Shown: positions 1 through 17,182 of the stretch, piece by piece
Numbering within the stretch: the stretch's first letter is position 1
Layout of the letters: every line of letters starts with the position of its first letter
Assembly (NCBI GenBank): GCA_050257455.1
Contig: JBLMWX010000024.1
Location: 1 to 46,637, forward strand
Source: Gemmatimonadota bacterium
GTDB lineage: Bacteria; Desulfobacterota; Deferrimicrobia; Deferrimicrobiales; Deferrimicrobiaceae
Direction of reading: 5' to 3'
Length of the DNA stretch: 46,637 bases
Notes under the pieces: model-generated
Database searches by the model: none
What the model was told of the DNA's origin: nothing
The model's input: the letters and a program-made list of their open reading frames with translations, nothing else
Program-made: the position numbers and the translations under genes

Positions 1-898
1 CCAGAAACTCCTCGTGGTCCGACACGCCGAAGACGAACTCGTCCAGGTACGCGCGCATCTGCGCGTCCGTCCGGATCGCGTTCAGCATGTCGACGTGCGC
101 GAGGTCGATCTCGTACCGCGCCGGCATCGACCCGGGGTACGCCCCGAACGGGGCGTGGACCACCCCGTCCACGAGAAAATAGGGGATCGTCGTGCGCATC
201 GGGTCCTTTCGGAACTCGTCGGGCTCGACGATCTCCTCCGCCGAGACGATCACGCGGTGCGACGCCATGGCCGCCTCGAGCGCGAACAGGTTCGTGCCGA
301 AGATCCGCGCGTCGCCGTGGACGTCCGCCTGGTGCACGTGGATGAGCGCGACGTCCGGGTTCAGCGCCGGCACGAGGCACACGGGATCCCCCGTGTACGG
401 GTCGTCGATGACCCGCGCCGCCGAGACCGTCAGGTTGTCGGTGCCCAGGAGATCCCGGGTCGGCAGGAACGGCACGCCCCGCGCGCCTGCCAGCAACCGG
501 AGGGCCAGGCCCCCGTTCGTCCACTCGTAGACCTTGACGCGGCCCTCGCAGACCGCCTGGCCGATGTAGCTCCCATAGCCGAGGAACCCGACGTCGATCC
601 GCGTGGCGCAGCCGGCGCCGACCAGGAGCGACGACTCGTGGAGCGTGAACTCGGCGCCGATCCAGAGGTCCTTCCTGCGCTGCCGGATGATTTCCCGGAC
701 GAGCGCCTGGGGCCCGCGGGTGAGGCTCGAGAAGTCGTAGACGATGTAGTCGCCGTCCGAGACCAGCGATGCGACGGCATCCCTCGCCGAAAGGAGCTTC
801 GACTCCGGCCGGCGGCTCTTCCTGTCGCGGACGAAGCGGCGGAAGGCGTCGGGGTGCTCGAACCGGTATTCGACGTTCCCCTCCCTGCGGATCGTCAT
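1..898 (-). CDS. Family I CoA-transferase subunit A, glutaconate CoA-transferase (GctA)-like; 3' end runs off the window
   Basis: Absent from the ORF track because it has no stop in the window. Translated by hand from ATG 898 (ATGA overlap with the meaB stop, GGAGGAGG RBS): MTIRREG...LVSDGDYI...RGPQALVREIIRQ...GARGVPFLPTRDLLGTD...DPYTGDPVCLVPALNPDVALIHVHQADVHGDA...VIVSAEEIV...VDGVVHAPFGAYP, typical of GctA-type subunits. Confidence 0.85.
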   Translation of the reverse strand, partial: MTIRREGNVEYRFEHPDAFRRFVRDRKSRRPESKLLSARDAVASLVSDGDYIVYDFSSLTRGPQALVREIIRQRRKDLWIGAEFTLHESSLLVGAGCATRIDVGFLGYGSYIGQAVCEGRVKVYEWTNGGLALRLLAGARGVPFLPTRDLLGTDNLTVSAARVIDDPYTGDPVCLVPALNPDVALIHVHQADVHGDARIFGTNLFALEAAMASHRVIVSAEEIVEPDEFRKDPMRTTIPYFLVDGVVHAPFGAYPGSMPARYEIDLAHVDMLNAIRTDAQMRAYLDEFVFGVSDHEEFL

Positions 899-1917
899 AC
901 CCTCCTCCTCCGGCGCCGCGCCGGCGGGCGGGCCCGCTCCTCGTTCATCAGGTGGAACGCGAACCTGTGGTCGACCACCTTTTCGACGATCGAGTACGGA
1001 TCCCGCTTCTTCCGGGCGATGTCGGCGAGAATCGGCTCGAGAAGGCCGTGGACGTCGAGGTCGCCGATCGCCTTCTCGAGGAGTTTCTTCTTCAGGATCT
1101 CGAGGAGCTCCACCCGGGCCTTCCCCGCCTGGTACCGGGAGAGGTTGTCCGCGCGGTAGACGTAGCCGCGGTGCTTCCCCACCTCCTCGAGAAGTTCATC
1201 GACCCCGGTCCCCGCCTGCGCGACCGTCGAGACGACGGGGGGGACCCAACGCCCTTCCTCGTAGACGTTCATCGAGATCATTGTCTCGATCTCGCGGCGG
1301 GTCTTGTCCGCTCCCTCGCGGTCGGACTTGTTGACCACGAAGACGTCGGCGATCTCCAGGATCCCGGCCTTCATCGCCTGGATGTCGTCGCCGAGTCCGG
1401 GGACGACGACGACGACGTTCGTGTGGGCGACCTTGACGATCTCGACCTCGTCCTGGCCGACGCCGACCGTCTCGATAATGACGACGTCCTTGCCCATCGC
1501 GTCCATCACGTTGACGATGTCGATCGTCGACTTGGAGAGGCCGCCCAGGTGTCCGCGGGTCGCGAGGCTCCTGATGAAGACGCCCTCGTCGAGAGCGTGT
1601 TTCGACATGCGGATCCGGTCCCCGAGGATCGCGCCGCCGGAAAACGGGCTCGTCGGGTCGATGGCGACGATCCCGACCGTCTTCCCCTCGGCCCGGAGCC
1701 GCTCGGTGATGCAGTCGACGAGGGTGGACTTTCCCGCCCCGGGGGCTCCGGTGACCCCGAGGATGTACGCCCGGCCGGTATGCCTGTACAGGGACTTGAG
1801 GATCCGGTTCGCGGCCGGGATCTCGTCGTCGAGGTCGCGCATCAGGCGGGCCGCGGCGCGCACGTCGCCGGACAGCACCTCCCTCGCTCCCGCCGACCGC
1901 CCTCCCATCGCGCGCAC
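895..1917 (-). CDS. meaB: MeaB/ArgK G-protein chaperone of B12 acyl-CoA mutase
   Basis: Motifs GVTGAPGAGKST, AIDPTSPFSGGAILGDRIRM, ETVGVGQDE, NKSD. Start is GTG 1917 or ATG 1908. Confidence 0.93.
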   Translation of the reverse strand: MRAMGGRSAGAREVLSGDVRAAARLMRDLDDEIPAANRILKSLYRHTGRAYILGVTGAPGAGKSTLVDCITERLRAEGKTVGIVAIDPTSPFSGGAILGDRIRMSKHALDEGVFIRSLATRGHLGGLSKSTIDIVNVMDAMGKDVVIIETVGVGQDEVEIVKVAHTNVVVVVPGLGDDIQAMKAGILEIADVFVVNKSDREGADKTRREIETMISMNVYEEGRWVPPVVSTVAQAGTGVDELLEEVGKHRGYVYRADNLSRYQAGKARVELLEILKKKLLEKAIGDLDVHGLLEPILADIARKKRDPYSIVEKVVDHRFAFHLMNEERARPPARRRRRRV

Positions 1918-1924
1918 CCCCGTG

Positions 1925-3067
1925 CTAGCCCCGGATCAGCCGCCGCGCGATGATCATGCGCTGGACCTCGGAGGTTCCCTCGCCGATCTCGCACAGCTTC
2001 GCGTCCCGCATGTACCGCTCCACGGGGTACTCGCGCGTGTAACCGTACCCCCCGAAGATCTGGACGGCCTTGATCGTCCCGCGCATCGCGGCCTCCGAGG
2101 CGAACAGCTTCGCCATGGCGGCCTCCTGGACGAACGGCCTCCCCGCGTCCTTGAGCCAGGCGGCCCGCAGGGTCAGAAGCTCCGACGCCTCGAGCTCCGT
2201 GCAGGTATCCGCGATCATCCACCGGATCGCCTGGAAGGAGGCGATCGGCTGGCCGAACTGGCGCCGCTCCTTCGCGTACGCGATCGCCTCGTCGATCGCC
2301 CCGAAGCCGATCCCGACCGAGAGCGCGGCGATCGAGATGCGTCCCCCCGCGAGGTTGCTCATGGTGTCCCGGAACCCGCGGTTGACCTCGCCGACGACGT
2401 TTGCGGGCTTGACCTCGAGGTCCTCGAAGACGAGCTCGGCCGTATCCGAGGAGCGCATCCCCAGCTTGTGGAGCTTCTTCCCGACGGAGAGGCCCCGGGT
2501 TCCCCCTTCGACGAGGAAGGCCGTCACGCCGTCCCGCCCCTTCTCCCTGTCGGTGACGGCGAGGATCACGTAGACGCCCGCCACGCTCCCCTGGGTGATG
2601 AACATCTTGCTCCCGTTGAGGATCCAGCGGTCCCCCCGCCACTCCGCCTTCGTCCTCATGGCGAGGGAATCGGAGCCCGAGCCGGGCTCGGTCAGCGCCC
2701 AGGCGCCGAGCATCCGCCCCGAGGCGAGTTCCGGGAGGTACTTCCGACGGATCGCCTCGGAGCCGAAGGCCAGGATATGGGCGGTGCACAGGGAGTTGTG
2801 GGAGGCGACGGTGAGCCCGAGCGACCCGTCCCCCTTCCCGATCTCCTCGACCGCGAGGGCGTAGCTGATCGTGTCCATCCCCGATCCCCCGTACTCCTCG
2901 GGGACCATCACCCCCATGAGACCCAGCTCGCCGAGGGCCGCGACCGTGTCGGACGGGAATTCGCCCGCCTCGTCCCACAGGCGCGCCTTCGGCTTCACCT
3001 CGTTCTCGACGAACGACCGGACCGTGTCCCGCAGGGCGACGTGCTCGGGTGCCAGCTCGAACCGCAT
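1925..3067 (-). CDS. Acyl-CoA dehydrogenase, probable isovaleryl-CoA (beta-branched) type
   Basis: Start MRFELAPEH at 3067. Motifs [26 protein letters not shown]. The C-terminal motif is EIGEGTSE (Gly in place of the usual Tyr). Confidence 0.9.
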
Positions 3068-3078
3068 CGCGCCGCTCG

Positions 3079-3636
3079 TCAGGCCGGGACGAAGTAGACG
3101 TCGGTCGGCTTGAGCTGGGAGTTGCGCCGGAATTTCGCCTTGATCTCCATCCCGATCCGGATGTCCTCCGGTCTCTCGACCCCGATCAGCCGCGCCAGCA
3201 GCAGCGTGTCCGCGCCGTCGAACTCGACGAGCACCAGGTGGAACGGCGTCTCCTCGAGGAATTCCTCGCTGCCGTAGTAGCACGTCGTGAACGTGTGGAC
3301 CCGCCCCTCCTTCGGGAGCTCGACCCACTCGTTCTCTCCCCCGCAGAAGGTGCAGTGGAGCCGCGGGGTCGCCCAGGTGTAGTCGCACTTCGGGCACCGG
3401 GTCCCGAGGATCTTCCCGTTGGCCAGCCCGGCGAAGAAGGGCGAATCCTGGCCGTAGGAGTGGATGTACTCGACGGAGTACGGGTGCTTGATCACGATCG
3501 GGGACATCCCCTTGAGCGCGCCGAGGTCCTTCGGGAACGGGACGTTGAACACCGTCGTGCCCGTCATCAGCTCGGGCAGCTTCGCGTTCCGGTCGAACCG
3601 CGGCCCCCCGGTTCCTTTCTTCGCGGCGTTCGCCAT
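3079..3636 (-). CDS. DUF35 family Zn-ribbon/OB-fold acyl-CoA-binding protein
   Basis: Start MANAAKK at 3636. [27 protein letters not shown] zinc ribbon, then a GRVHTFT...[11 protein letters not shown]...[11 protein letters not shown] fold. Directly downstream of the thiolase-fold gene. Confidence 0.88.
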
Positions 3637-3638
3637 GG

Positions 3639-4925
3639 CTACCACCCCCGTTCCATGATCGACACGGTGACGTAGGTCCCCGTGCCGGCGTGGCTGTGGA
3701 TGAGACCCCGGTTCGCCCGTTTGAGCTGGAGCTCGCCGGACCCGAAGTGCTTCTTGATGCTCCCCTGGATCTGCCAGAAGGCGAACACCGCCTGCATGAG
3801 GCCGGTCGCCCCGACGGGGTGGCCGCACGCGATCAGGCCGCCCGAGGGGTTGACGGGAATGGTCCCCTTCTTCCTGAGCTTGAGCCCGTAGTCGATCTGC
3901 GGCATGAAGGGGTGCCCTTCCTCGACGAACCTGCCGCCGTCGCCGTACTTGCAGAGGGCCAGGTCCTCGTACGTCTGGATCTCCGACGACGTGTACGCGT
4001 CGTGGAGCTCGACGAAGTCGATCTCCCTGATGGGATCCCTGATCCCGGCCATCTTGTACGCCTGGAGACCCGCGCTGCGCCCGGCCCGGAACGAGTGCAC
4101 GCCGGGGTACTTGAGGTTCCTGTAGTCGCTCTCCTTCTCGTTCGGGGCGAGGATCACCTTCCCGTGCGGCCGGTCGGCCATCCGCATCATGTCGGTGCCG
4201 GTGCCCACCCCCGTGATCTTCACCGGCCGGTCCGTCAGCCGGAACGCCGTCTCCTCGTCGGCCAGGATGCAGACCGCCGCGCCGTCCGACATCACGCAGA
4301 TGTCGAGGAGCGTGAGCGGGTACGCGACCATCTCGGCGTTGCGCACGTCGGCGATGGTGAGCTTGCGCCGCTTCTGGGCGTACGGGTTGTCGTAGGCGTT
4401 CATGTGGTTCTTGACCGACACCATCGCCAGCTGCTCGACGGTCGTCCCGAACTCGTGCATGTGCCGGTTCACCATCATCGCGTAGTAGCCGGAGTAGAAG
4501 CCGCCCACGGGATAGTCGAAGCTCACGTCCGACGCCAGCGCGATGAACTCGTTTCCCTTCCACGTCTGCACGTGCGACATCGTCTCGAACCCGAACGCGA
4601 CGCAGCAGTTCATCCGGCCCGACGCGACCGCCTCCCAGCCCGCCTGGAAGCACAGGCCGCCCGTGGCGCCGCCGCCCTCGATCCGCTTGTTGGGCTTGGG
4701 GCAGAGCCCGAGGTAGTCGGTGGCCATGATCCCCGCCATGAGCTGGCGGGTGAAATGGTCCGAGAAGTACGACCCGACGGAGCCGTCGATCATCGCCGGC
4801 TTGAGCTTCGGCACGTCGCCGAGCGCGTAGTCGAACGCCTCCTTCACGATCTTCTGGAAGGTCGCGTCGGGGCGCGCCTTCCGGAACTTGCTGATCCCCC
4901 CCGATACCATGTAGACCGGTCTCAC
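3639..4925 (-). CDS. SCP2/archaeal-type thiolase-fold protein lacking catalytic cysteines
   Basis: Thiolase motifs [43 protein letters not shown]. The nucleophile loop reads EGGGATGG (no Cys) and the C-terminal loop reads HSHAGTG (no Cys). Confidence 0.9.
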
Positions 4926-4953: not shown

Positions 4954-5403
4954 TCATGCCCTCGGCCGGACCCGCTCGCCGACGTAGTCGATGATCGCCT
5001 GGAGCGGGGTCCCCGGCGTGAACACGCGGTCGACGCCTCTCTTCCGGAGGAACGGAATGTCGTCGTCCGGGATGATCCCGCCGCCGAAGACGACCACGTC
5101 GCCCATCTTCTTCTCCTTCAGCAGCTCGACGACCCGCGGGAAGAGGTAGTTGTGGGCGCCCGAGAGGATCGACAGCCCGATCGCGTCGACGTCCTCCTGG
5201 ACCGCCGCGTTGACGATCATTTCCGGGGTCTGGTGGAGCCCCGTGTAGATGACCTCGAATCCCGCGTCCCGAAGGGCCCGGGCGATGATCTTCGCCCCCC
5301 GGTCGTGCCCGTCGAGCCCGGGCTTCCCCACGAGGATCCGGACCTTTCGCGCGACATGCCTCGCCTTCGTGCCCGACTTGCTCCGCGCCTGTGCGCTCGC
5401 CAT
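4954..5403 (-). CDS. Cobalamin-binding small subunit of acyl-CoA mutase (IcmB/MCM C-terminal-like)
   Basis: B12-binding motif [12 protein letters not shown], plus GLSILSGAH and GGGIIP. Confidence 0.93.
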
Positions 5404-5424: not shown

Positions 5425-7107
5425 TCAGAAAATCGCCGGATCCGCGTACGTGCCCATCGTCTCGCGGAACGCGTCGCAGATCTCCCCGAGGGTGACGTAT
5501 TCCCTCACCGCCTCGAGGATGACCGGCATGAGGTTCGTCTTCGGCGAGAGCGACGCATCCTTGAGCGCGTCGACGCACGCGGCGACCTTCCTCGCGTCCC
5601 TCTTCCGCCTGACCTCCCGCGTGCGCTCCACCTGCTTCCGCTCCACCTCGGGATCGATCTTGAGGAGCGGGATCCGGGGCTCCTCCGTCATCTGGTAGCA
5701 GTTGACCCCGACGATCTTCTTGTCCCCCGTCTCGAGGAGGCGCTGGTAGCGGAACGCCGCGTCCGCGACCTCGCGCTGCGGATAGCCGCGCTTGATCGCG
5801 TTGACCATCCCCCCCATCTCGTCGATCTTCCCGATGTACGCCATCGCCTTCCGTTCCATCTCGTCGGTCAGGGCCTCGACGCAGAAGGAGCCCCCGAGCG
5901 GGTCGATGGTGTTGGCCACGCCCGTCTCGTCGGCGAGGATCTGCTGGGTCCGCAGGGCGACCGTCACGGCCTGCTCCGTGGGCAACGCGAGGGTCTCGTC
6001 CATCGAATTCGTGTGGAGCGACTGGGTCCCGCCGAGCACCGCCATCAGCCCCTGGAGGGCGACGCGGACGACGTTGTTGATCGGCTGCTGGGCGGTGAGC
6101 GTGCACCCCGCGGTCTGGGTGTGGAACCTGAGCTTCCAGGATGCCTCGTCCTTCGCCTTGAACCGCTCCCGCATGATGCGGGCCCACATGCGCCGCGCGG
6201 CGCGGTACTTGGCGATCTCCTCGAAGAAGTCGATGTGCGCGTTGAAGAAGTAGGACAGCCGGGGCGCGAACCTGTCCACGGGGATCCCGGCGTCGATTCC
6301 CGCCTGGACGTACGCGATTCCGTCCGCGATGGTGAACGCGAGCTCCTGGACGGCCGTGGATCCCGCCTCGCGGATGTGGTATCCGCTGATGCTGATCGTG
6401 TTCCACTTCGGGACGTGGTCGGCGCAGTACGCGAGCGTGTCGACGATGATCCGCATCGACGGCTCCGGCGGGAAGATCCAGGAATGCTGCGCGATGTACT
6501 CCTTCAGGATGTCGTTCTGGATGGTCCCGCCGATCCTGTGGGACGAGACGCCCTGCTTCTCGGCCACGGCGATGTACATCGCCAGCAGGACCGCGGCCGG
6601 CGAGTTGATCGTCATCGACGTCGTGACCTTGTCGAGGGGAATCCCGTCGAACAGGATCTCCATGTCCTTGAGGGAGTCGACCGCGACGCCGCACTGTCCC
6701 ACCTCGCCCCGCGACCGGGCGTGGTCCGAATCGTAGCCCATGAGCGTCGGGAAATGGAAGGCCACCGACAGGCCCGTCTGGCCCTGGCCCAGCAGGTAAT
6801 GGTACCGGCGGTTCGTGTCCTCGGCCGACCCGAACCCGGCGAACTGGCGCATCGTCCACAGCCGCCCGCGGTACATGGACGGCTGAACGCCGCGCGTATA
6901 CGGGTACTCCCCCGGGAACCCGAGGTCCCTCGCGTAATCGAGGCCGGCGACGTCGCCGGGGCCGTACAGGTCCCGGACTTCCTCGTCGGAGACGGTCGAG
7001 AATCGCGCTCTCAGCTCGGGCGAGCGGGCCAGCAGGGGCGACAGCGTGCCCCCTTCCCACCGCGTCCTCCCGTCGGCGACTGCCTTGAGCTTCCTCTTGT
7101 CGTACAC
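5425..7107 (-). CDS. B12-dependent acyl-CoA mutase large subunit, isobutyryl-CoA mutase-like
   Basis: GTG start at 7107 after a GGGGAGG RBS. Motifs [47 protein letters not shown]. Specificity positions are F89 and Q207. Confidence 0.92.
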
Positions 7108-7148
7108 GATCCTTGTCCTCCCCCTTGGACGGGCCCGGCCCGCCCGGT

Positions 7149-7688
7149 TCAACGCTCGATGCCGACGCGGGCGTCCACGCCCCTGGCGTAATAGTGCTTG
7201 ATCTCCCGCATTTCGGTGACCAGGTCGGCGATCTCCAGGAACGCCGCGGGCGCCCCCCGCCCCGTGAGGATGATCTCCATCCCGTCGGGCTTCCGGCGCA
7301 GGACGTCGAGGACCTCCCCGGGGTCGAGGAGGCCGTAGTCGGCGGCGCAGTTGATCTCGTCGAGGACCACGAGGTCGGCCTTCCCGCCCAGGATCACGGC
7401 GCTGGCCAGCTCCCACCCCTCCCGCGCCAGGCGGACATCCTCGGGATCGGGATCCTTCCTGTTGACGAAGGTGTCGCGGCCGGCCTGGTGGATCTCCACG
7501 TAGGGCGACAGCATCGCGACGCCCTTGAGCTCCCCGTAGTCGATCCAGCCCTTCATGAACTGGATGATCACGGTCCGCAGCCCGTGGCCCGCCGCCCGGA
7601 CCGCCAGCCCCAGCGACGCGGTGGTCTTCCCCTTGCCGTTTCCCGTGTAGACCTGGATGTATCCCTTGCCGAGAGGCGCCCCGCCCAT
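7149..7688 (-). CDS. cobO: ATP:cob(I)alamin adenosyltransferase, CobO/BtuR/CobA type
   Basis: Motifs [52 protein letters not shown]. Confidence 0.92.
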
Positions 7689-7693
7689 GGTAC

Positions 7694-8827
7694 TCACCGC
7701 AGCAGGTCCCGTGCGATGACGACCCGCTGGATCTCCGAGGTTCCCTCGTAGATGGTACTCACCCTGATGTCCCTCAAGTGCCGCTCCACGGGATAATCCC
7801 GGACGTACCCGTATCCCCCGAGGACCTGGACCGCCTTGTGGCACGCCCGGTTCGCCGCCTCGGTCGCGAAGACCTTGGCCATCGACGCCTCGCGCGTGAA
7901 GGGCCGCCGGTTTTCCTTGAGCGCGGCGGCCCGGAAGGCGAGGAGCTGGGCCGCGTCCAGCTCGGTGGCCGCGTCGGCGAGCATCCACTGGATCGCCTGG
8001 AACTCGGCGATCGGCCGGCCGAACTGTTTCCGCTCCCGGGCGTAGGCGACGGCCGCCTCGAGGGCGGCGCCCGCGATCCCGATCGCCTGGAAGGAAATGC
8101 CGATCCGCCCGCCGTCCAGCGCGGACATGGCGATGCGGAACCCCTCGCCGGGCGCGCCGAGCATGTTCTCCTTCGGGACGCGGCAGTCGTCGAACGCCAT
8201 CGAGACCGTGTCCGAGCCCTTGAGCCCCATCTTGTGCTCGGGCCTGCCCGTCGCAAACCCCGGGGTCCCGGGCTCGACGAGGAAGGCGGTGATCTCCTTC
8301 TTCGGCTCTTTCCGGGTGACCGCCATCACGATCGTCACGCACGCGCGGGAGCCGTTCGTGATGAAGGCCTTGCTCCCGTTCAGGACGAACGAGTCGCCGT
8401 CGGGAACCGCGGTCGTGGAGATCCCGAACGCGTCGGACCCGGCGGACGGCTCGGTCAGGCCGAAGGCGCCCGCCCCTTTCCCGGAGGCGAGGGCGGGCAG
8501 GAACTTCCTGCGCTGCTCCTCGGTCCCGAACCGGAAGATCCCCTCCCCCACCATGTTCGTCACGGCCATCCCCACGACGGTCGAGGCGCACGCGGCCGCG
8601 ACTTCCCGGACGGCGATCCCGTAGGAAACGGGTCCGGCGTCGGATCCCCCGTACTCGGCCGGGTAGAGCATCCCGAGAAGCCCCAGTTCCGCGAGCTTGC
8701 GCATGTTCTCTTCCGGGTAGCGGGAGCTCTCGTCGATCTCGGCCGCCCTCGGCGCGAACTCGTTCCGCGCGAGGGACCGGACCATCGCCTCGACCTGGAG
8801 CTGCTCGTCGGTGAACGCGAACCGCAC
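7694..8827 (-). CDS. Acyl-CoA dehydrogenase (short/branched chain)
   Basis: Motifs [40 protein letters not shown] start. Confidence 0.92.
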
Positions 8828-8834
8828 CGCTGCG

Positions 8835-9977
8835 TCAGTCCTTGATGAGAGCCGACGAGATCACCAGCCGCTGGATCTCGGAGGTGCCCTCGTAGATCTC
8901 CGTGATCTTGGCGTCGCGGAAGTGGCGCTCGGCCGGGTACTCCTTGATGTAACCGTAGCCGCCGTGGATCTGGATCCCCTTCACGCTGGCGCGCATCGCG
9001 GCCTCGGAGGCATACAGCTTCGCCATCGACGATTCCTTCGAATGCCGGGCCTTCCGGTCCTTGAGCCACGCCGCGCGGTGGGTCAGCAGCCGCGCCGCGT
9101 CGATCTCGGTCGCCATGTCGGCGAGCATCCACTGGATCGCCTGGAAATTGACGATCGGCTGGCCGAACTGCTTCCGGTCCTTCCCGTAGGCGAGGGCGTC
9201 CTCGAGCGCCGCGCGCGCGATCCCGAGCGCCTGCGCGGCGATGCCGATCCGCCCCCCGTCCAGGGTGTGCATGGCGATCTTGAAGCCGTCCCCCTCGTTC
9301 GCGAGGCGGTTGGCCGCCGGGACCTTGACGTCCTCGAAGATGAGCGACGCCGTCCCCGATGCGTTGATGCCAAGCTTTTTCTCGTGTTTTCCGACGGTTA
9401 TGCCTTCCCACTTCATGTCGACGATGAAGGCCGTGATCCCCTTGTGCGCCTTGGCCTTGTCCGTCATCGTGAACAGGACGCACGTGTCGGCCTGCGGGGC
9501 GTTGGTGATGAAGTTCTTGGTGCCGTTGACGATGTAATGATCGCCCCGGCGGACGGCAGTCGTCTTCTGGGACCCCGCGTCCGAGCCTGCGCCGGGCTCC
9601 GTCAGACCGAAGCAGCCGAGCCTCTTTCCCGACGCGAGCGGAACGAGATACGCCTTCTTCTGCTCCTCGGTGCCGAACTTGAGGATCGGGTCGCAGACCA
9701 GGGAGTTGTTGACGGACATGATGACCGCCGTCGAAGCGCACGCCCGGGCGATCTCCTCCATCGCGATCGCGTAGCAGATGTTGTCCATGCCGGCCCCGCC
9801 GTACTCCTCGGGGATCGCGACGCCCATGAATCCGAGCTCGGCCATCTGCCGGACGAGCTCCTCGGGAAAACGCCCGGTCTCGTCGAGCTCGGCCGCCTTG
9901 GGGAGCACTTCCTTCTGCGCGAAGTTGCGCGCCGTGTCCTGGATCATCCGCTGCTCTTCGGTGAGCTCGAACACCAT
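8835..9977 (-). CDS. Butyryl-CoA/short-chain acyl-CoA dehydrogenase
   Basis: Start MVFELTEEQ at 9977 after an AAGGAG RBS. Motifs FGLTEPGAGSDA and DAKITEIYEGTSE. Confidence 0.93.
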   Translation of the reverse strand: MVFELTEEQRMIQDTARNFAQKEVLPKAAELDETGRFPEELVRQMAELGFMGVAIPEEYGGAGMDNICYAIAMEEIARACASTAVIMSVNNSLVCDPILKFGTEEQKKAYLVPLASGKRLGCFGLTEPGAGSDAGSQKTTAVRRGDHYIVNGTKNFITNAPQADTCVLFTMTDKAKAHKGITAFIVDMKWEGITVGKHEKKLGINASGTASLIFEDVKVPAANRLANEGDGFKIAMHTLDGGRIGIAAQALGIARAALEDALAYGKDRKQFGQPIVNFQAIQWMLADMATEIDAARLLTHRAAWLKDRKARHSKESSMAKLYASEAAMRASVKGIQIHGGYGYIKEYPAERHFRDAKITEIYEGTSEIQRLVISSALIKD

Positions 9978-10021: not shown

Positions 10022-10804
10022 CTATCTCCCCTTGAAGGACGCCTTCCTCTTTTCGAGAAATGCCTTCATTCCCTCGACCCGGTCCTCCGACGAGAAACAG
10101 GCGCCGAAGAGGCTCGCCTCGTAGGCGTTGGCGTTCGGAAGGTCGAGGTCGAGGCCCCGGTTCATCGCCATCTTCGCGAGGCGGATCGCCGCGGGCCCCT
10201 TGGACAGGATCGTGGCGGCGATCTCGCGCGCCGTCTTCATGAGTTCCGCGGCCGGGACGACCCGGTTCACGAGGCCGATCTCGTAAGCCCGCTGCGCCGT
10301 GATCATCTCGCCCGTCAGGACGAGCTCCTTGGCCACGTTGCGCCCGACGAGCCGCGGGAGCCGCTGGGTCCCGCCGTAGCCGGGAATGATCCCGAGGTTC
10401 ACCTCCGGCTGGCCGAGCTTCGCCGTGTCGGCCGCCACGAGGAGGTCGCACGCCATGGCGAGCTCGCATCCCCCGCCGAGCGCGAATCCGTTGACGACGC
10501 CGACGACCGGCTGCGGAAGCCGCTCGATGAGCTCGAGCACCCCGTGCCCGTACAGGGAGAATTCGAGGGCCTGCAGCGGCTCGAGCCGGCTCATCTCCGA
10601 GATGTCCGCGCCCGCGACGAACGCCTTCTCCCCGGCGCCGGTCAGGAGGACGACGCCGACGTCGGCGCGCGCGCCGATCGATTCGAGGGCGTCCTTCAGC
10701 TCCCGCATCGTCGCCGGATTGAGCGCGTTGAGCGACCTGGGCCGGTTGATGGTGATCGTCGCGATCCGGTCCGCCACGTCGAGGAGGATGTTCGCGTAGT
10801 CCAT
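10022..10804 (-). CDS. crt: Enoyl-CoA hydratase (crotonase)
   Basis: Start MDYANILL at 10804. Motifs AFVAGADI, ALGGGCELAMACD, GQPEVNLGIIPGYGGTQRL; both catalytic Glu present. Confidence 0.92.
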   Translation of the reverse strand: MDYANILLDVADRIATITINRPRSLNALNPATMRELKDALESIGARADVGVVLLTGAGEKAFVAGADISEMSRLEPLQALEFSLYGHGVLELIERLPQPVVGVVNGFALGGGCELAMACDLLVAADTAKLGQPEVNLGIIPGYGGTQRLPRLVGRNVAKELVLTGEMITAQRAYEIGLVNRVVPAAELMKTAREIAATILSKGPAAIRLAKMAMNRGLDLDLPNANAYEASLFGACFSSEDRVEGMKAFLEKRKASFKGR

Positions 10805-10815
10805 GTCCGCCCCCT

Positions 10816-11673
10816 TTACGCCGTTTCGTAGGCGTAGAAGCCCCGCCCGCTCTTCTTTCCGAGGTACCCCGCCTCGACCTGCTTCTTCAGGAGCGGGCAC
10901 GGCCTGTACTTCGGGTCGCCCAGCCCCTCGTGGAGCACCTTCATGACCTCGAGGCAGGTGTCCAGCCCGATCAGGTCCGCGAGGGCCAGGGGACCCATCG
11001 GGTGGTTCGCGCCCATCCGCATCGCGGCGTCGATGTCCTCCGCCCTCGCCACCCCTTCCATCAGGGCGTAGATCGCCTCGTTGATCATCGGCATCAGGAT
11101 CCGGTTGACGGCGAAGCCCGGATAGTCGTTCGCCGGCACCGGCTCCTTGCCGAGGCTGCGGGAGAGGGCCACCGTCGCGTCGAACGTCTCCCCGGAGGTC
11201 TGCAGGCCCCGGATGATCTCGACGAGCTTCATCAGGGGTACGGGGTTCATGAAGTGCATCCCGATCACCCTGTCGGGGCGCCTCGTGACGGAGGCGATCT
11301 TCGTGATCGAGATCGAGGACGTGTTCGTGGCCAGGATCCGTCCCGGCGGCACGATCCCGTCGAGGGAGCGGAAGATCGACAGCTTGAGCTCCTCCCGCTC
11401 GGTGGCGGCCTCGACCGCGAAGTCGCAGGCGGAAAACGCCCCGAGGTCCGCCGTCGTCGCCAGGTTGCCCGCCATCCGTTCCCGGTCCGCAACCGTGATC
11501 TTCTCCTTGCGGACCAGGATGTCGAGCCCCTTCTCGATCCCGGCCCGGGACTTCGCGAGGATCGCGTCGGACACGTCGTTCAGCACCACCTTGTATCCGT
11601 TCGTGAGCGCGACCTGCGCGATCCCGCTCCCCATCTGTCCCCCGCCGACGACGCCGATCGTCCTGATGTCCAT
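10816..11673 (-). CDS. hbd: 3-hydroxybutyryl-CoA dehydrogenase
   Basis: Motifs [38 protein letters not shown]. Confidence 0.94.
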
Positions 11674-11701: not shown

Positions 11702-12880
<1,179 letters not shown>

Positions 12881-12918: not shown

Positions 12919-13317
12919 TCAGGTTTCCTGCAGGAGCTTCCCCCGCAGCCGGGTCTGGTAGTCGTGGATCTCCTTCTTCAGCGCGACGAGCTGGTTGATG
13001 CGGTCGTCGATCTGCGCGGCCCGTTCGTCGAGGATCGCGACCAGCTTCGGGATGACCTCCCTGTTGTTTCTCTGGTTCCGATAGATCTTCTCGAGCGCCA
13101 CCATTTCGGCAAGCGAGAGTCCCAGGACCTTGAGTTTGTTGATGAATCTGAGGCGGCGCACGTCGTGGTCCGTGTAGACGCGCTTGCCGTTCTCGATCCG
13201 GCGGATGCTGTGCAGCAGGCCGATCTCCTCGTAGTAGCGGATCGTCCTCTGCGAGAGGTCGACCATCCGGCTGAGCTCGCCGATCGGGTATGTGACGGGC
13301 GCTTCGGGGGATCCCAT
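12919..13317 (-). CDS. MerR family transcriptional regulator, LiuR-like
   Basis: MerR HTH YPIGELSRMVDLSQRTIRYYEEIGLL...RVY followed by a coiled coil. No Cys, so not a Cys-ligand metal sensor. Start is ATG 13317 or GTG 13326. Confidence 0.88.
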   Translation of the reverse strand: MGSPEAPVTYPIGELSRMVDLSQRTIRYYEEIGLLHSIRRIENGKRVYTDHDVRRLRFINKLKVLGLSLAEMVALEKIYRNQRNNREVIPKLVAILDERAAQIDDRINQLVALKKEIHDYQTRLRGKLLQET

Positions 13318-13319
13318 GT

Positions 13320-13343
13320 CTGCCACCTTACGTTAACTGGCAG
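13320..13343 (-). promoter_or_regulatory. Putative LiuR-like operator part-site inside a leader hairpin
   Basis: Plus strand CTTACGTTAAC (13327-13337) resembles part of the LiuR consensus TTTACGTWWACGTAAA. It is flanked by CTGCCA/TGGCAG inverted arms. Confidence 0.4.
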
Positions 13344-13345
13344 AG

Positions 13346-13374
13346 AGATTACCCGACACCCCGCCGCGCGTCAA
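13346..13374 (-). promoter_or_regulatory. Sigma70-type promoter of the acyl-CoA operon
   Basis: TTGACG (13374-13369), 17 nt spacer, TAATCT (13351-13346). Confidence 0.7.
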
Positions 13375-13423
13375 GATGTTTTTGACGCCCCGTCATTGCC
13401 GGCTGTCCGCGTCGCTATCGGCC

Positions 13424-14179
13424 CTATTTCGCGATCTTCTTCAGCAGCTCCGCGGCCCTCTTCTTCTCCAGGCGCTGTTCCGGGATGGCGTCGGGGAACG
13501 CGTCGTCCGGCGCCGCCAGGGCGGCCTCGAGCTCGGCGCGCGCGAGGTCGTTGCGTCCGTCCTTCACGTAGGCCTCCGCCAGCAGGAAGCGGTTCCCGGC
13601 ATAGATCGGGTACGCCGCGACCGCCTTTTTCCCGTATTCGACGGCCTTGGAAACGCTTCCGCCCAGGAGCCCCGGGAGCCTCGCGTAGTACGCGCAGAAG
13701 AAGCGGTCGGGCCCGCGGTAGAAATAGTCCGGCTGGATCGTCTCGGTCTTCCGGTTCAGCTCCTCGACCTTCCCGATCCCGAGAAGGCTCCGGAACTTCC
13801 CCTTGAGGTTGTTTTCCCGGGCGAGGTTCGCCGCCTCGAAGAAGTAGCCGCCGGGCCGGTCCGGGGCCGCCTCGGCCGCCCGCCGGCCGTAGTCGCGTCC
13901 CTTGACGAAGTGCGCGATGGCGCCGCTCTTGTCGACCGTCTCGAGGTTCTGCCCGATCCAGTAGTGGAGCCGCGAGAGCCGCAGCAGGACGTCGTAATCG
14001 TTCGGGCTCTCCTTGAGCAGCGCCTCGTAGGCGGCAACCGCCTCGTTCGCCTTTCCCGGATCCTCGCGCGCAGCCCACAGGGCGTTCGCCCTCTCCCGCG
14101 GGGCCTCGCCCGCGACCGCGATCGCGGCCGGCGCGGCAAGAACCAGACACGCGAGCGAAACGGCCAGAGACCTTTTCAT
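13424..14179 (-). CDS. Secreted TPR-like helical repeat protein (TatT/T-component-like)
   Basis: Start MKRSLAVSLACLVLAAPAAIAVA looks like a signal peptide; GGGGAGG RBS. Helical repeats such as AVAAYEALLKESPNDY and LLAEAYVKDGRNDLARAELEAAL. Confidence 0.7.
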   Translation of the reverse strand: MKRSLAVSLACLVLAAPAAIAVAGEAPRERANALWAAREDPGKANEAVAAYEALLKESPNDYDVLLRLSRLHYWIGQNLETVDKSGAIAHFVKGRDYGRRAAEAAPDRPGGYFFEAANLARENNLKGKFRSLLGIGKVEELNRKTETIQPDYFYRGPDRFFCAYYARLPGLLGGSVSKAVEYGKKAVAAYPIYAGNRFLLAEAYVKDGRNDLARAELEAALAAPDDAFPDAIPEQRLEKKRAAELLKKIAK

Positions 14180-14190
14180 GGAGTCCTCCC

Positions 14191-15396
14191 CTATCCGCCT
14201 TCGATCGTTTCGAGAAACGCCTCGAGACGGGTCCGCCACGCCCCCTCGGCGAAGTCCCTCTCGTCCGCCATGTCGCCCTCGATCACAATGCACGGAACGC
14301 CGTCCCGTTTCAAGCGGGCGGCGATCTCCTCCTGCCCGAACGAATACGGCTTGCAGCTCCGGTTCGAATGGAACACGACCCCCCGCGCCGAAAGCGATGC
14401 GGCGAGGGTCCGAATGACCGCCTCCCTGTGCCGGAGCCCCGAGTTGAGCCACACGCGGGCGTAGGCGTCCGCGAGCGCGTCGATCGGGTCGCCCGACTCC
14501 GCCGGCGTCTCGGTCCAGGCGTGCGTGTAGGTGGCGCCGACGAGGACGGCGTCGCGCGCCGCCAGAAAGGCGCTCAGGGCCTTGAGCTGGTGCCACACCG
14601 GGAGATTGTCCCACAGCAGCCGGGTGCGCTCCGGCTCCACCGCGCCCTCCCCGCGCGACGCGCGTGCCCGAAGCTCGTCGCGCAGCCCGGCGTAGAACGC
14701 CACCGCCTCCCGCGTTCCCCGCATCGTCACGATCGGGCCCATCAGGATGAACTGGTCCGCGGCCGAGGCGGGAGCCGGCCGCGCGGCGTTCGCGGCGAGG
14801 CATGCGTCCCACAGCGCCGAGGCCTCCCGGGACAGGGCCACGATCTCGCGGAACCGCTCTTCGCGCCATTCCCTCCCCGTCGCCCGCGACAGTTCCCCGG
14901 GGAGCCCGCGGAACTGCGCGCGCACGTACGCGCGGGCCGCCCGTTCCTCGTCGCCGTGACGGAAGGGCATGTCGAGGAGTATCAGGGGGACGCCGTGGAA
15001 CCGGGCGAGCCCCTCGTACCACTTGACCACGGTCCGGCAGATATTGTTCGCGCAGACGAGGAAGTCCGGCGGAGGCAGCCCCCCGATCGGGCTCCGGTCC
15101 GGCGCGGACCGCGCGCCCCGATCGATTCTCCAGTACGAGCAGAGCTCGCGCCGGTAACCCTGTTCCTCGGCCGCGCGGCACAGGGCGCCCCCGGCGCGCG
15201 CCACGCCGCAGACCGCGCCGTGGTTCTCGGGATAAACCGGGACGACGTCCATCGCGAGCAGGAACTCCACGGGAGCGCCGCTCGTCACGTAGGCGACGCG
15301 CCTCCCCTCGTCCCGGGCCAGCCATCCCGCCTGGAAATGGCGCAGCATCAGCTCCTTCATGCGGGCGGTCGCCGACAGGCGCTCCCGAAGCGCCAT
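14191..15396 (-). CDS. 2-hydroxyacyl-CoA dehydratase family subunit (HgdA/HadB/BzdO-like)
   Basis: Start MALRERL at 15396. Motifs VPVYPENH, ELCSY, GGLPPPDFLVCANNIC, WDNLP, HSNRSCKP, IEGDMADER, TRLEAFLE; three FeS Cys present. Confidence 0.88.
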   Translation of the reverse strand: MALRERLSATARMKELMLRHFQAGWLARDEGRRVAYVTSGAPVEFLLAMDVVPVYPENHGAVCGVARAGGALCRAAEEQGYRRELCSYWRIDRGARSAPDRSPIGGLPPPDFLVCANNICRTVVKWYEGLARFHGVPLILLDMPFRHGDEERAARAYVRAQFRGLPGELSRATGREWREERFREIVALSREASALWDACLAANAARPAPASAADQFILMGPIVTMRGTREAVAFYAGLRDELRARASRGEGAVEPERTRLLWDNLPVWHQLKALSAFLAARDAVLVGATYTHAWTETPAESGDPIDALADAYARVWLNSGLRHREAVIRTLAASLSARGVVFHSNRSCKPYSFGQEEIAARLKRDGVPCIVIEGDMADERDFAEGAWRTRLEAFLETIEGG

Positions 15397-15398
15397 TT

Positions 15399-16529
15399 CT
15401 ACTCCCCCATCTCGACGAACGCCCCGATGCGGACGGCGAGGGCCGCCGCCCCGGGGGCGCCGGGATCGACGTCGACACCGAGGAAGGGAACGCCCCGGCG
15501 CTTCGCCTCCAGGGCGATGTCGGGCGCGTCGCCGGCCTCCGGCTCGCACTGGCGGACCCGCACCATGAGGATCCGGTCCGCCCCGCACGCCGACGCGTGG
15601 CGGAACAGGGAGTCGATCCGGCTCCGTCCCGCCCAGTGGAGCGTCGCGCACGGCCCCCGGGACAGGTGCCTCCGGACGAGCGCCAGGGCCGCGTCCCCGT
15701 CCTCCTGCGCCGCCCCCTCGAAGTACCGGCGTCCCCGGCCCAGGTCGTTTCCGACCACGGCGGCGCCGGCGCCGTCCAGCGCGGCCGCGACGTCGTCCGT
15801 CGCCAGCATGCCCGTGAGAAAGACCCGGGCGCGCGGCGTCCCGGCGCGTCCTCCCGGGCGCTCCAGGACCGCGCGGACCAGCTCGGTGTGCGTCTCCCTC
15901 GGCAGGAGGGAGCCGGCGCGCGCCAGGAGAAGGTACCCCGCCGCGCTCAGGACGCCCGGCGAGTCCGCCATCCGCTCCTCGAGCCGCGCGAACAGCCGCC
16001 GGTTGACGTTGTACGCCGCGATCGCCTTCGCGAGGGATCCCTCCCGCACCAGCCGCCCCGAAACCGTCCCCGACCATTCGACGAAGGCCTCGATCCGGTC
16101 GAGCAGGTACTCGGTTGACCCGGCGAGGTCCCCGGACAGCGGGAAGACGAGGGGGAACAGCGGGCGCGCCTCGCCGCCCGCCTTCAGGACCTCGACGGCG
16201 TTCTGGATCGAGTCGCAGGTCGAGGGGACCGCCCACGCATCGAGGGCGTCCCAAAGGCCGCCGCGGACGGCCGCGAAGACGCCGCGGACGATGCCGCACA
16301 GGAACGGCGGCACGTTGGCGGGGGGCGGATTCGCGAACTCGTCGCCCCAGAGGGTGACCGGGAGCATCCCGGCCGCGTGGAGGACCTCCTCCGGAAGGTA
16401 GAGGGGGAAGCATCCGACGGCCTTGCGCCCGGAGAGGGCCTTCCAGCGGCGCACGGCTCCCGCCGGGTCGTCGCGGACCGCGGCGGCGTACCGGAGCGCC
16501 TCGTCGGCGGAAAGCGGCGTCGCGGTCAT
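15399..16529 (-). CDS. 2-hydroxyacyl-CoA dehydratase family subunit (HgdB/HadC/BzdN-like)
   Basis: Motifs GCFPLYLPEEVLHAAGMLP, PPFLCG, PSTCD, VVGNDL, QCEP, RIGAFVEM. Confidence 0.85.
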   Translation of the reverse strand: MTATPLSADEALRYAAAVRDDPAGAVRRWKALSGRKAVGCFPLYLPEEVLHAAGMLPVTLWGDEFANPPPANVPPFLCGIVRGVFAAVRGGLWDALDAWAVPSTCDSIQNAVEVLKAGGEARPLFPLVFPLSGDLAGSTEYLLDRIEAFVEWSGTVSGRLVREGSLAKAIAAYNVNRRLFARLEERMADSPGVLSAAGYLLLARAGSLLPRETHTELVRAVLERPGGRAGTPRARVFLTGMLATDDVAAALDGAGAAVVGNDLGRGRRYFEGAAQEDGDAALALVRRHLSRGPCATLHWAGRSRIDSLFRHASACGADRILMVRVRQCEPEAGDAPDIALEAKRRGVPFLGVDVDPGAPGAAALAVRIGAFVEMGE

Positions 16530-17182
16530 CGGCCCTGGTAGATGACCGCGAGGATCAGCGCCTCCTTCTCTTCGGTCGAGTGGACGTGGTGCGGAATCGT
16601 CGAGTTGTAGTAGATGCAGTCTCCCTCGGCGAGGACGTCGGAATAGTTGTCGAGGAAGACCTCGACCTTGCCCGAGAGGACGAAGAGGAACTCCTCTCCC
16701 TCGTGGGAGTTGCGCGCCACGTTCCGGTCCCGGAGGGGGGTCAGCCGGACGAGAAAGGGCTCCATCCTGCGCCCCGCCTTCCCCGCGCCGAGCGCCTCGT
16801 ACGTGTACGACGATTTCCCGCCCTCCTTGAGCCCGACCCGCGAGACGGTCGTCCGGTCCTCCTTGCGGACGATCGAGAACTCCCGCTCCTCCTTCCCGCC
16901 GATGAACGCCGAAACGGTGGTGTCGAGCGCGTTCGCGATCTTCACCAGCGTCCCGAGCGGCGGCGACGTCATCCGGTTCTCGATCTGCGTGAGAAGGGCG
17001 GTCGAGAACCCGGTCTTCTCGGCGAGCTGCTGGAGCGAGACGCCGCGGCCCTCGCGGAACCTGTGGATGTGGTCCCCGACCTGGACCTCGGGCGACCCCG
17101 CGGCCGGCCCCCAGTCCCCCGACTCCTCGGCGATCTTTTCCAGAAGGTCGTCCATCGATTCGTCACGCGTGATTTCTGGCAA
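16526..17182 (-). CDS. XRE-family HTH regulator with C-terminal cupin domain
   Basis: HTH SLQQLAEKTGFSTALLTQIEN and cupin SHEGEEFLFVLSG...GDCIYYNSTIPH. Start is TTG 17182 or ATG 17155. Confidence 0.9.
   Translation of the reverse strand: MPEITRDESMDDLLEKIAEESGDWGPAAGSPEVQVGDHIHRFREGRGVSLQQLAEKTGFSTALLTQIENRMTSPPLGTLVKIANALDTTVSAFIGGKEEREFSIVRKEDRTTVSRVGLKEGGKSSYTYEALGAGKAGRRMEPFLVRLTPLRDRNVARNSHEGEEFLFVLSGKVEVFLDNYSDVLAEGDCIYYNSTIPHHVHSTEEKEALILAVIYQGR

Follow-up and report, generated by a model that had tools for sequence, protein, structure and literature searches.

Among thiolase-fold proteins that lack the catalytic cysteine and pair with a DUF35 protein, the only characterised members named in PMC12329534 are Ltp2 and Sal, both of which are retro-aldolases; the same paper gives their catalytic residues as Tyr294 of the YDHF motif and Tyr344 in Ltp2, and as Tyr302 and Cys304 of YDCY in Sal, where Gly occupies the former nucleophile position. 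The substrates of both are large steroid 3-hydroxyacyl-coenzyme A (CoA) thioesters that are beyond thiolysis, and their context is steroid catabolism, whereas the pair considered here, ThlX and its DUF35 partner, lies in the operon of a B12-dependent acyl-CoA mutase. It is encoded on a 46,637-nucleotide stretch, referred to throughout as the window (assembly GCA_050257455.1, contig JBLMWX010000024.1, positions 1 to 46,637), from a bacterium deposited as Gemmatimonadota and placed by GTDB in the Deferrimicrobiaceae of the Desulfobacterota. ThlX is very probably a non-thiolytic acyl-CoA enzyme of a branched- and short-chain catabolic module linked to a mutase of the isobutyryl-CoA mutase (ICM) type. 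The single most likely reaction of the pair is the one suggested in a preliminary description of the window, retro-aldol cleavage of 3-hydroxyisovaleryl-CoA to acetone and acetyl-CoA, and it is put forward here tentatively.

The active site of ThlX and its DUF35 partner

The pair is made up of the following genes.

3639..4925, minus strand: ThlX, a 428-residue thiolase-fold protein without catalytic cysteines (Pfam, NCBIfam, phmmer, structure model, Foldseek)
3079..3636, minus strand: DUF35 partner, 185 residues, zf-ChsH2 and OB_ChsH2_C (Pfam), a four-Cys zinc ribbon and an OB fold

Three Pfam domains, Thiolase_C_1, Thiolase_N and Thiolase_C, are recognised in ThlX, and the thiolase fold, the His of the GHP motif (His369) and the CoA loop SDGA (S213-D214-G215-A216) are all kept, while the nucleophilic and the acid/base cysteines are both absent. 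In the phmmer alignment with the acetoacetyl-CoA thiolase of Methanothermococcus thermolithotrophicus (6esq_A), Gly86 of the loop EGGGATGG (codon 4668-4670) pairs with the nucleophilic Cys of RVEAACASGS; ELHDAYT (HDAY, 308-311) pairs with EVHDCFA, placing Ala310 at the acid/base Cys of the HDCF type; and IHSHAGTG (HSH, 410-412) pairs with AANVGGTG, neither an HN(V/L)GG nor a CxG loop being present. The preliminary description had already read the Gly at 4668-4670, a C-terminal HSHAGTG without CxG and the retention of HDAY and GHP, all of which the translation and this alignment bear out. Taken residue by residue, the active site resembles that of a thiolase from which both cysteines are missing and to which Y311, S411 and H412 have been added. 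The loss of both catalytic cysteines excludes covalent thiolysis, and the retained His pair and CoA loop indicate acyl-CoA binding and enolate stabilisation; judged by these residues, the annotation of ThlX as a 'thiolase' is functionally wrong.

The nearest relatives of known structure are nonetheless true thiolases. Searched with Foldseek, the structure model of ThlX (predicted local distance difference test, pLDDT, 80 overall) ranks 6esq first (31% identity, template-modelling scores 0.80/0.87), BbsB and the SCP2 thiolases at 2-8, Sal (9myr) 32nd and Ltp2 (6ok1) 33rd; the corresponding phmmer E-values are 3.8e-46 for 6esq, 9e-17 for Sal and 8e-15 for Ltp2. The archaeal enzyme, which works within a thiolase/3-hydroxy-3-methylglutaryl-CoA (HMG-CoA) synthase/DUF35 complex (6esq/6et9), has in common with ThlX the DUF35 partner and the His of both HDxx and GHP, but it carries AACASG, HDCF and ANV where ThlX has GGGATG, HDAY and HSH, and no HMG-CoA synthase is encoded near ThlX. 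Benzoylsuccinyl-CoA thiolase BbsAB (7pxp) and the SCP2-type thiolases resemble ThlX in the HDAF/HDCF region and closely in fold, and in the dependence on a DUF35 protein (BbsA), but these are true thiolases with the nucleophilic Cys that ThlX lacks. The family model NF004982 (PRK06365), a 'thiolase domain-containing protein' to which no function is attached, matches ThlX over its full length at 682.1 and 681.7 bits, just under the curated cut-off of 695, and the same motifs occur in the archaeal orthologues. Residues 120-145 of ThlX (window 4490-4567, minus strand) are invariant across domains and yet modelled at pLDDT below 50; this loop, which we take to be the equivalent of the covering loop on the thiolase active site, is in the model probably a mobile lid above the active site.

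The altered motifs are highly conserved. In 120 close homologues from several phyla, 74-92% identical to ThlX, EGGGATGG is found in 119, LHDAYT in 117 and HSHAGTG in all 120, and in an alignment of 18 orthologues (Deferrimicrobia, Nitrospirota, Chloroflexota, Tectomicrobia, other bacteria and three archaeal metagenome contigs) 169 of the 428 positions are invariant, including G84-G90, H308, D309, A310, Y311, H369, H410, S411, H412 and the SDGA loop. The fixation of H308, D309, H369, SDGA, Y311 and S411-H412 is more readily reconciled with an active enzyme than with a relic, and by these patterns of conservation the motif changes are neither chance nor the mark of a decaying copy. The preliminary description had asked whether the cysteines of GGLCF and IACGH reach the active site; at these two positions, C92 and C367, the three archaeal orthologues of the alignment carry Ala, or Ala/Asn, and the only invariant Cys, C210, stands at a position where ordinary thiolases carry Cys or Ser as well; from the alignment, no substitute nucleophile is apparent.

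The DUF35 gene begins 2 nt past the TAG stop of thlX, as first described. Ahead of its zinc ribbon the partner has an N-terminal segment (residues 40-68) in which all 12 of the 12 partners compared, from bacteria and archaea, share P46, Y53, Y57, H59-S60-Y61, S65 and F67-F68; this segment could reach the ThlX active site. A complex prediction of ThlX, DUF35 and the mutase small subunit, run without controls, scored 0.00 and weighs neither way on binding.

The mutase operon around the pair

The window is about 68% G+C and almost all of its genes are on the minus strand. The operon to which thlX belongs is given below in order of transcription, with ThlX and DUF35 falling between the B12-binding small subunit and acyl-CoA dehydrogenase c.

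12919..13326, minus strand: MerR-family regulator at the operon head, placed likewise in Deferrimicrobia loci
11702..12880, minus strand: canonical acetyl-CoA C-acetyltransferase, both Cys, Asn and His intact; LCIGGG
10816..11673, minus strand: 3-hydroxyacyl-CoA dehydrogenase
10022..10804, minus strand: short-chain enoyl-CoA hydratase (crotonase); open reading frame (ORF) listed to 10900, family match from residue 33
8835..9977, minus strand: acyl-CoA dehydrogenase a, like short-chain acyl-CoA dehydrogenase (SCAD), IYEGT; 451 bits to 1jqi
7694..8827, minus strand: acyl-CoA dehydrogenase b, Bcd/SCAD-like, IYEGT
5425..7416 (ORF; family match 5434-7002), minus strand: acyl-CoA mutase large subunit, with Phe (RQFAGF) and Gln (AQHSW)
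4954..5403, minus strand: B12-binding small subunit of the acyl-CoA mutase, TIGR00640 171.8 bits, ending 28 nt before the thlX start
1925..3067, minus strand: acyl-CoA dehydrogenase c, directly after DUF35, EIGEGT (Tyr to Gly beside the catalytic Glu)
895..1917, minus strand: MeaB, G-protein chaperone of the mutase, TIGR00750 325 bits
2..898, minus strand: CoA-transferase family protein; the operon runs on to the contig end

The intact thiolase and the crotonase had been reported before; the ICM-type mutase/MeaB module surrounding the pair, the strongest contextual signal, was overlooked in the preliminary description. The closest match of the mutase large subunit in the PDB is HcmA (4r3u, E 1.7e-172), and a 2-hydroxyisobutyryl-CoA mutase was considered on that account; this identity is ruled out, as Phe and Ala take the place of Ile90 and Asp117 of HcmA. 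At the positions of Tyr89 and Arg207 of methylmalonyl-CoA mutase (MCM) the subunit has Phe and Gln, a combination which we take from the ICM, MCM and 2-hydroxyisobutyryl-CoA mutase literature to be the isobutyryl-CoA mutase signature. With Phe/Gln, a split B12 subunit and MeaB, the neighbouring mutase is by its residues and gene content of ICM type, sharing with IcmA/IcmB and MeaB the separate large and small subunits, the meaB gene and Phe/Gln at the specificity positions, and no described ICM operon with a thiolase-like/DUF35 pair was found in the literature searched. The large-subunit ORF extends over 663 codons, with homology beginning at about codon 115-135, and the true start probably lies, on this homology, near 7000-7100, some 300-400 nt downstream of 7416.

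The association with ThlX recurs well beyond this genome. Synteny was followed in 80 genome loci of close ThlX relatives, about half from Deferrimicrobia and half from Nitrospirota with a few others, kin among them not being independent. Where the flanking sequence was long enough, thlX immediately followed the gene of the B12 small subunit in 73 of 76 loci and was itself immediately followed by the DUF35 gene in 65 of 71; meaB was no more than 3 kb away in 45 of 53, and the gene of the mutase large subunit no more than 4.5 kb away in 49 of 53. Deferrimicrobia, Nitrospirota, Chloroflexota and Tectomicrobia all have loci with the order small subunit-ThlX-DUF35-MeaB. Phe/Gln is present in all 63 ThlX-linked large subunits from the fetched loci and in four unlinked ones from ThlX genomes. 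The arrangement in Nitrospira runs thiolase, 3-hydroxyacyl-CoA dehydrogenase, mutase, a protein of the metallo-beta-lactamase (MBL) fold, small subunit, ThlX, DUF35 and MeaB, and on a complete Nitrospira chromosome an acyl-CoA synthetase and the E1a, E1b and E2 genes of a 2-oxoacid dehydrogenase precede the cluster. Reduced loci retain either MBL protein-small subunit-ThlX or small subunit-ThlX-DUF35, with the large subunit elsewhere in the genome beside a dehydrogenase. Between Deferrimicrobia and Nitrospira, identity is about 75% for ThlX, 65% for the small subunit, 60% for the mutase, 55% for DUF35 and the thiolase, 52% for the dehydrogenase and 48% for MeaB, and on these pairwise values no other protein of the cluster is as conserved as ThlX.

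The MBL-fold hydrolase gene of the Nitrospirota, located between the two mutase subunit genes (8701-9606, plus strand, in locus L066; 8617-9585 in L065; 8706-9563 in L074), has a weak match to YtnP-like lactonases, at 212 bits against a cut-off of 425.

The genome from which the window comes is 94% complete and encodes a second mutase, with the Tyr/Arg of the MCM type, on contig C36 (45630-50810) together with a PccB/mmdA-type carboxyltransferase and a biotin carboxylase; by its gene content this is a separate module for conversion of propionyl-CoA to succinyl-CoA. In a sample of 201 genomes of the phylum, the one genome of the same family without ThlX, which is 100% complete, has a Tyr/Arg mutase only; in this single comparison within the family, the ICM-type mutase accompanies ThlX, and neither occurs without the other.

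Possible reactions of the pair

One plausible explanation of these features is that ThlX and DUF35 together form a single CoA-thioester enzyme, in which the His residues of HDAY and GHP and the SDGA loop would hold the acyl-CoA and stabilise its enolate, with H308 and H369 as the oxyanion hole, with H412, Y311 or a Tyr or His of the DUF35 N-terminal segment as the base acting on the 3-hydroxyl group, and with non-covalent cleavage of the carbon-carbon bond. The operon as a whole would convert branched and short acyl-CoAs to acetyl-CoA: the ICM-type mutase and MeaB would turn valine-derived isobutyryl-CoA into butyryl-CoA, and the dehydrogenases, crotonase, 3-hydroxyacyl-CoA dehydrogenase and true thiolase would carry out short-chain beta-oxidation. 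The sole intermediate beyond oxidation by this set would be the tertiary alcohol 3-hydroxyisovaleryl-CoA, arising by hydration of 3-methylcrotonyl-CoA from leucine or isovalerate, and ThlX-DUF35 would split it into acetone and acetyl-CoA; the same operon encodes a crotonase. By analogy, ThlX may work like the Ltp2 and Sal aldolases, with which it shares the thiolase fold, the lost nucleophilic Cys and the DUF35 partner.

The complement of leucine-degradation genes is consistent with this proposal. In the genome of the window HMG-CoA lyase has no match over cut-off (best 43.8 bits against 246) and methylcrotonyl-CoA carboxylase was not found, the sole long acyl-CoA carboxyltransferase being of the PccB/mmdA type, and the canonical Liu route of leucine breakdown was not found there past 3-methylcrotonyl-CoA. 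HMG-CoA lyase is likewise below cut-off in four of five other ThlX genomes and in all four further ThlX-bearing genomes of the phylum, and a carboxyltransferase of the PccB or methylcrotonyl-CoA carboxylase type was not found at E<=1e-30 in three of three Nitrospirota genomes. All 35 copies of the dehydrogenase-c-type acyl-CoA dehydrogenase found in ThlX loci have EIGEGT; this Tyr to Gly change presumably resembles the widened pocket of isovaleryl-CoA dehydrogenase.

A number of observations weigh against cleavage of 3-hydroxyisovaleryl-CoA. The replacement of the Liu route proposed in the preliminary description agrees with the missing genes of the host genome, but one ThlX genome, from the Tectomicrobia, also has a full HMG-CoA lyase; the ThlX-less relative G223 is likewise without that lyase, and no substitution of one by the other is therefore seen within the family; and since 11 of 14 control genomes also lack HMG-CoA lyase, little can be concluded from its absence. 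An acetone carboxylase (Hydantoinase_B family) was found neither in the host genome nor in two of four others, and in the host any acetone formed would therefore be lost. The neighbouring dehydrogenase had been described as of the isovaleryl-CoA type, with which the Gly of its motif agrees, but its best PDB match is 1ws9, with isovaleryl-CoA dehydrogenase only 15th, and with the Glu retained in EIGEGT the enzyme after DUF35 is not a canonical isovaleryl-CoA dehydrogenase. The likeness to Ltp2, also part of that description, did not hold at the level of residues: ThlX has His308 for the Tyr base and Ala310 for the Cys acid of Sal, which sets it outside the Ltp2/Sal group, and it keeps the GHP His, to the position of which Tyr344/Gln352 would correspond. 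In sequence and fold alike it is far nearer to the true thiolases than to Ltp2 or Sal, and in the tree its clade is separate from the YDxF groups. The 2-oxoacid dehydrogenase beside the Nitrospira cluster is not assignable to branched-chain substrates, and no hydratase gene, nor any dehydrogenase gene other than that of a convergent thiolase and 3-hydroxyacyl-CoA dehydrogenase pair, lies near the archaeal orthologues. Finally, the tight placement of ThlX between the small subunit and MeaB, which persists in loci whose large-subunit gene is at another site of the genome (L065, L074, L078), is unexplained by a role in leucine breakdown. ThlX-DUF35 would on balance represent a new form of the Cys-less thiolase-fold/DUF35 theme, with a strong and unexplained link to a B12 mutase.

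That link could mean that the pair is a partner of the mutase in catalysis or channelling, binding the same acyl-CoA or the small subunit, with its chemistry or hand-over coupled to the B12 rearrangement, a role drawn by analogy that we regard as rather unlikely. The icmB-thlX-duf35-meaB order is the most conserved feature of the loci (the 73 of 76 and 65 of 71 given above), and icmB remains beside thlX even in genomes that carry the large-subunit gene on a different contig; the higher identity of ThlX than of the mutase between Deferrimicrobia and Nitrospira would fit many protein contacts, and the one family member lacking ThlX also lacks a Phe/Gln mutase. DUF35 is, moreover, a scaffold in the archaeal thiolase/HMG-CoA synthase complex, which shares one CoA site, according to PMC12329534. 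Against such a partnership stand the archaeal orthologues, 55-60% identical and with every motif retained, for which no mutase was found within 8 kb; one Manganitrophaceae genome in which ThlX is separate and the small subunit lies beside the large one; and one Tectomicrobia genome that showed Tyr/Arg mutases only. We know of no mutase that requires a partner of this kind. A bolder version, in which the small subunit, ThlX and DUF35 form one mutase-lyase assembly in bacteria and archaea, rearranging and then cleaving or condensing a branched C4/C5 acyl-CoA at a shared CoA site, is distinctly improbable. A different enolate-type reaction, whether decarboxylation of a substituted malonyl-CoA, cleavage of HMG-CoA, retro-aldol cleavage of another 3-hydroxyacyl-CoA, or an epimerisation or isomerisation, is a possible though doubtful alternative. 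It is favoured by the retention of both His residues that stabilise a thioester enolate, by slow decarboxylation of malonyl-CoA by the Cys-less relative TbSLP (PMC12329534), by the CoA-transferase and thiolase of the operon, which could use acetoacetate, and by the HMG-CoA lyase not found in the host genome; it is opposed by the lack of a carboxylase in or near the cluster and of a carboxylate-binding Arg in the mutase. An analogue of HMG-CoA lyase ranks lower because the route would need the methylcrotonyl-CoA carboxylase that was not found.

As every thiolase cysteine is lost, and inert partner subunits are known in the thiolase superfamily, ThlX might be a non-catalytic pseudo-thiolase serving as a structural or regulatory subunit of the canonical thiolase or of another enzyme; this is unlikely, given that the active-site loops are invariant, that the new polar residues S411, H412 and Y311 are fixed within catalytic loops, and that a scaffold should show relaxed constraint at the active site whereas here 169 of 428 positions are invariant across domains. 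That ThlX is still a thiolase using another nucleophile, such as a displaced Cys, would suit the fold, the CoA loop and the two His, but it is extremely improbable in the face of the archaeal replacements of C92 and C367, the Cys/Ser of ordinary thiolases at the C210 position, the loss of the acid/base Cys as well, and the presence of an intact thiolase in the same operon.

Distribution of the family and adjoining genes

At E<=1e-20 the family, unusually conserved with 74-92% identity between phyla, comprises 5658 proteins among 8000 candidates scored, and its carriers belong to groups of environmental importance: Nitrospira, Manganitrophus, anammox bacteria, Chloroflexota and relatives from the Asgard and Bathyarchaeia archaea. 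ThlX was found in 7 of 201 sampled genomes of its own phylum and in 3 of 151 sampled from the Nitrospirota. Among representatives at 50% identity, ThlX belongs to a Cys-less clade whose members have Gly in place of the nucleophile, the motif HDA[YF] and an SH pair in the final loop; this clade stands apart from both the Cys/HDCF thiolases and the Cys-less YDxF groups (FastTree, midpoint root, supports not inspected). Its members include Asgard archaea, Bathyarchaeia, Methanolliviera and Nitrospinota proteins named 'acetyl-CoA C-acetyltransferase' at source, in keeping with the preliminary description, which mentioned archaeal homologues under such a name. The genes of the true archaeal orthologues and their DUF35 partners adjoin the convergent thiolase and 3-hydroxyacyl-CoA dehydrogenase pair amid archaeal housekeeping genes.

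No publication on the ThlX family or on acetone-forming cleavage of 3-hydroxyisovaleryl-CoA was found in the literature searched, in which coverage of subscription journals and supplements is incomplete. The family is annotated throughout as 'acetyl-CoA acetyltransferase', a reaction beyond its means. If ThlX were a 3-hydroxyisovaleryl-CoA lyase, leucine and isovalerate could be broken down to yield acetone with no need of ATP, biotin or CO2, metabolic reconstructions of the carriers would change, and a new carbon-carbon lyase would be available for biocatalysis; if the pair instead acts jointly with the B12 mutase, the mutase complex would be of a new type.

More divergent Cys-less thiolase-like proteins paired with DUF35 were seen on the metagenome contigs L174 (2999-7581), L108 (7033-9920) and L100 (6175-9787). 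The pair in L174 directly precedes genes for the large and small subunits of a mutase, and L100, an Asgard-like contig, carries two different Cys-less pairs in tandem.

Upstream of the operon, a 259-codon ORF at 13371-14150 (minus strand), between the MerR gene and the dehydratase-like genes described next, is without a Pfam match and, the sequence being of high G+C, may not be a real gene. Beyond it, just upstream of the operon, lie two adjacent genes resembling the D component of 2-hydroxyglutaryl-CoA dehydratase (14191-16529 and 16526-17182, both minus strand), preceded by a regulator with helix-turn-helix and cupin domains; apart from these three, the remainder of the window consists of housekeeping genes. 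An acetone-induced cluster of Desulfotomaculum arcticum, detected by proteomics, is described as comprising a B12 mutase and a DUF35 protein together with 'acetyl-CoA acetyltransferases' and subunits like those of 2-hydroxyacyl-CoA dehydratase (PMC8084838).

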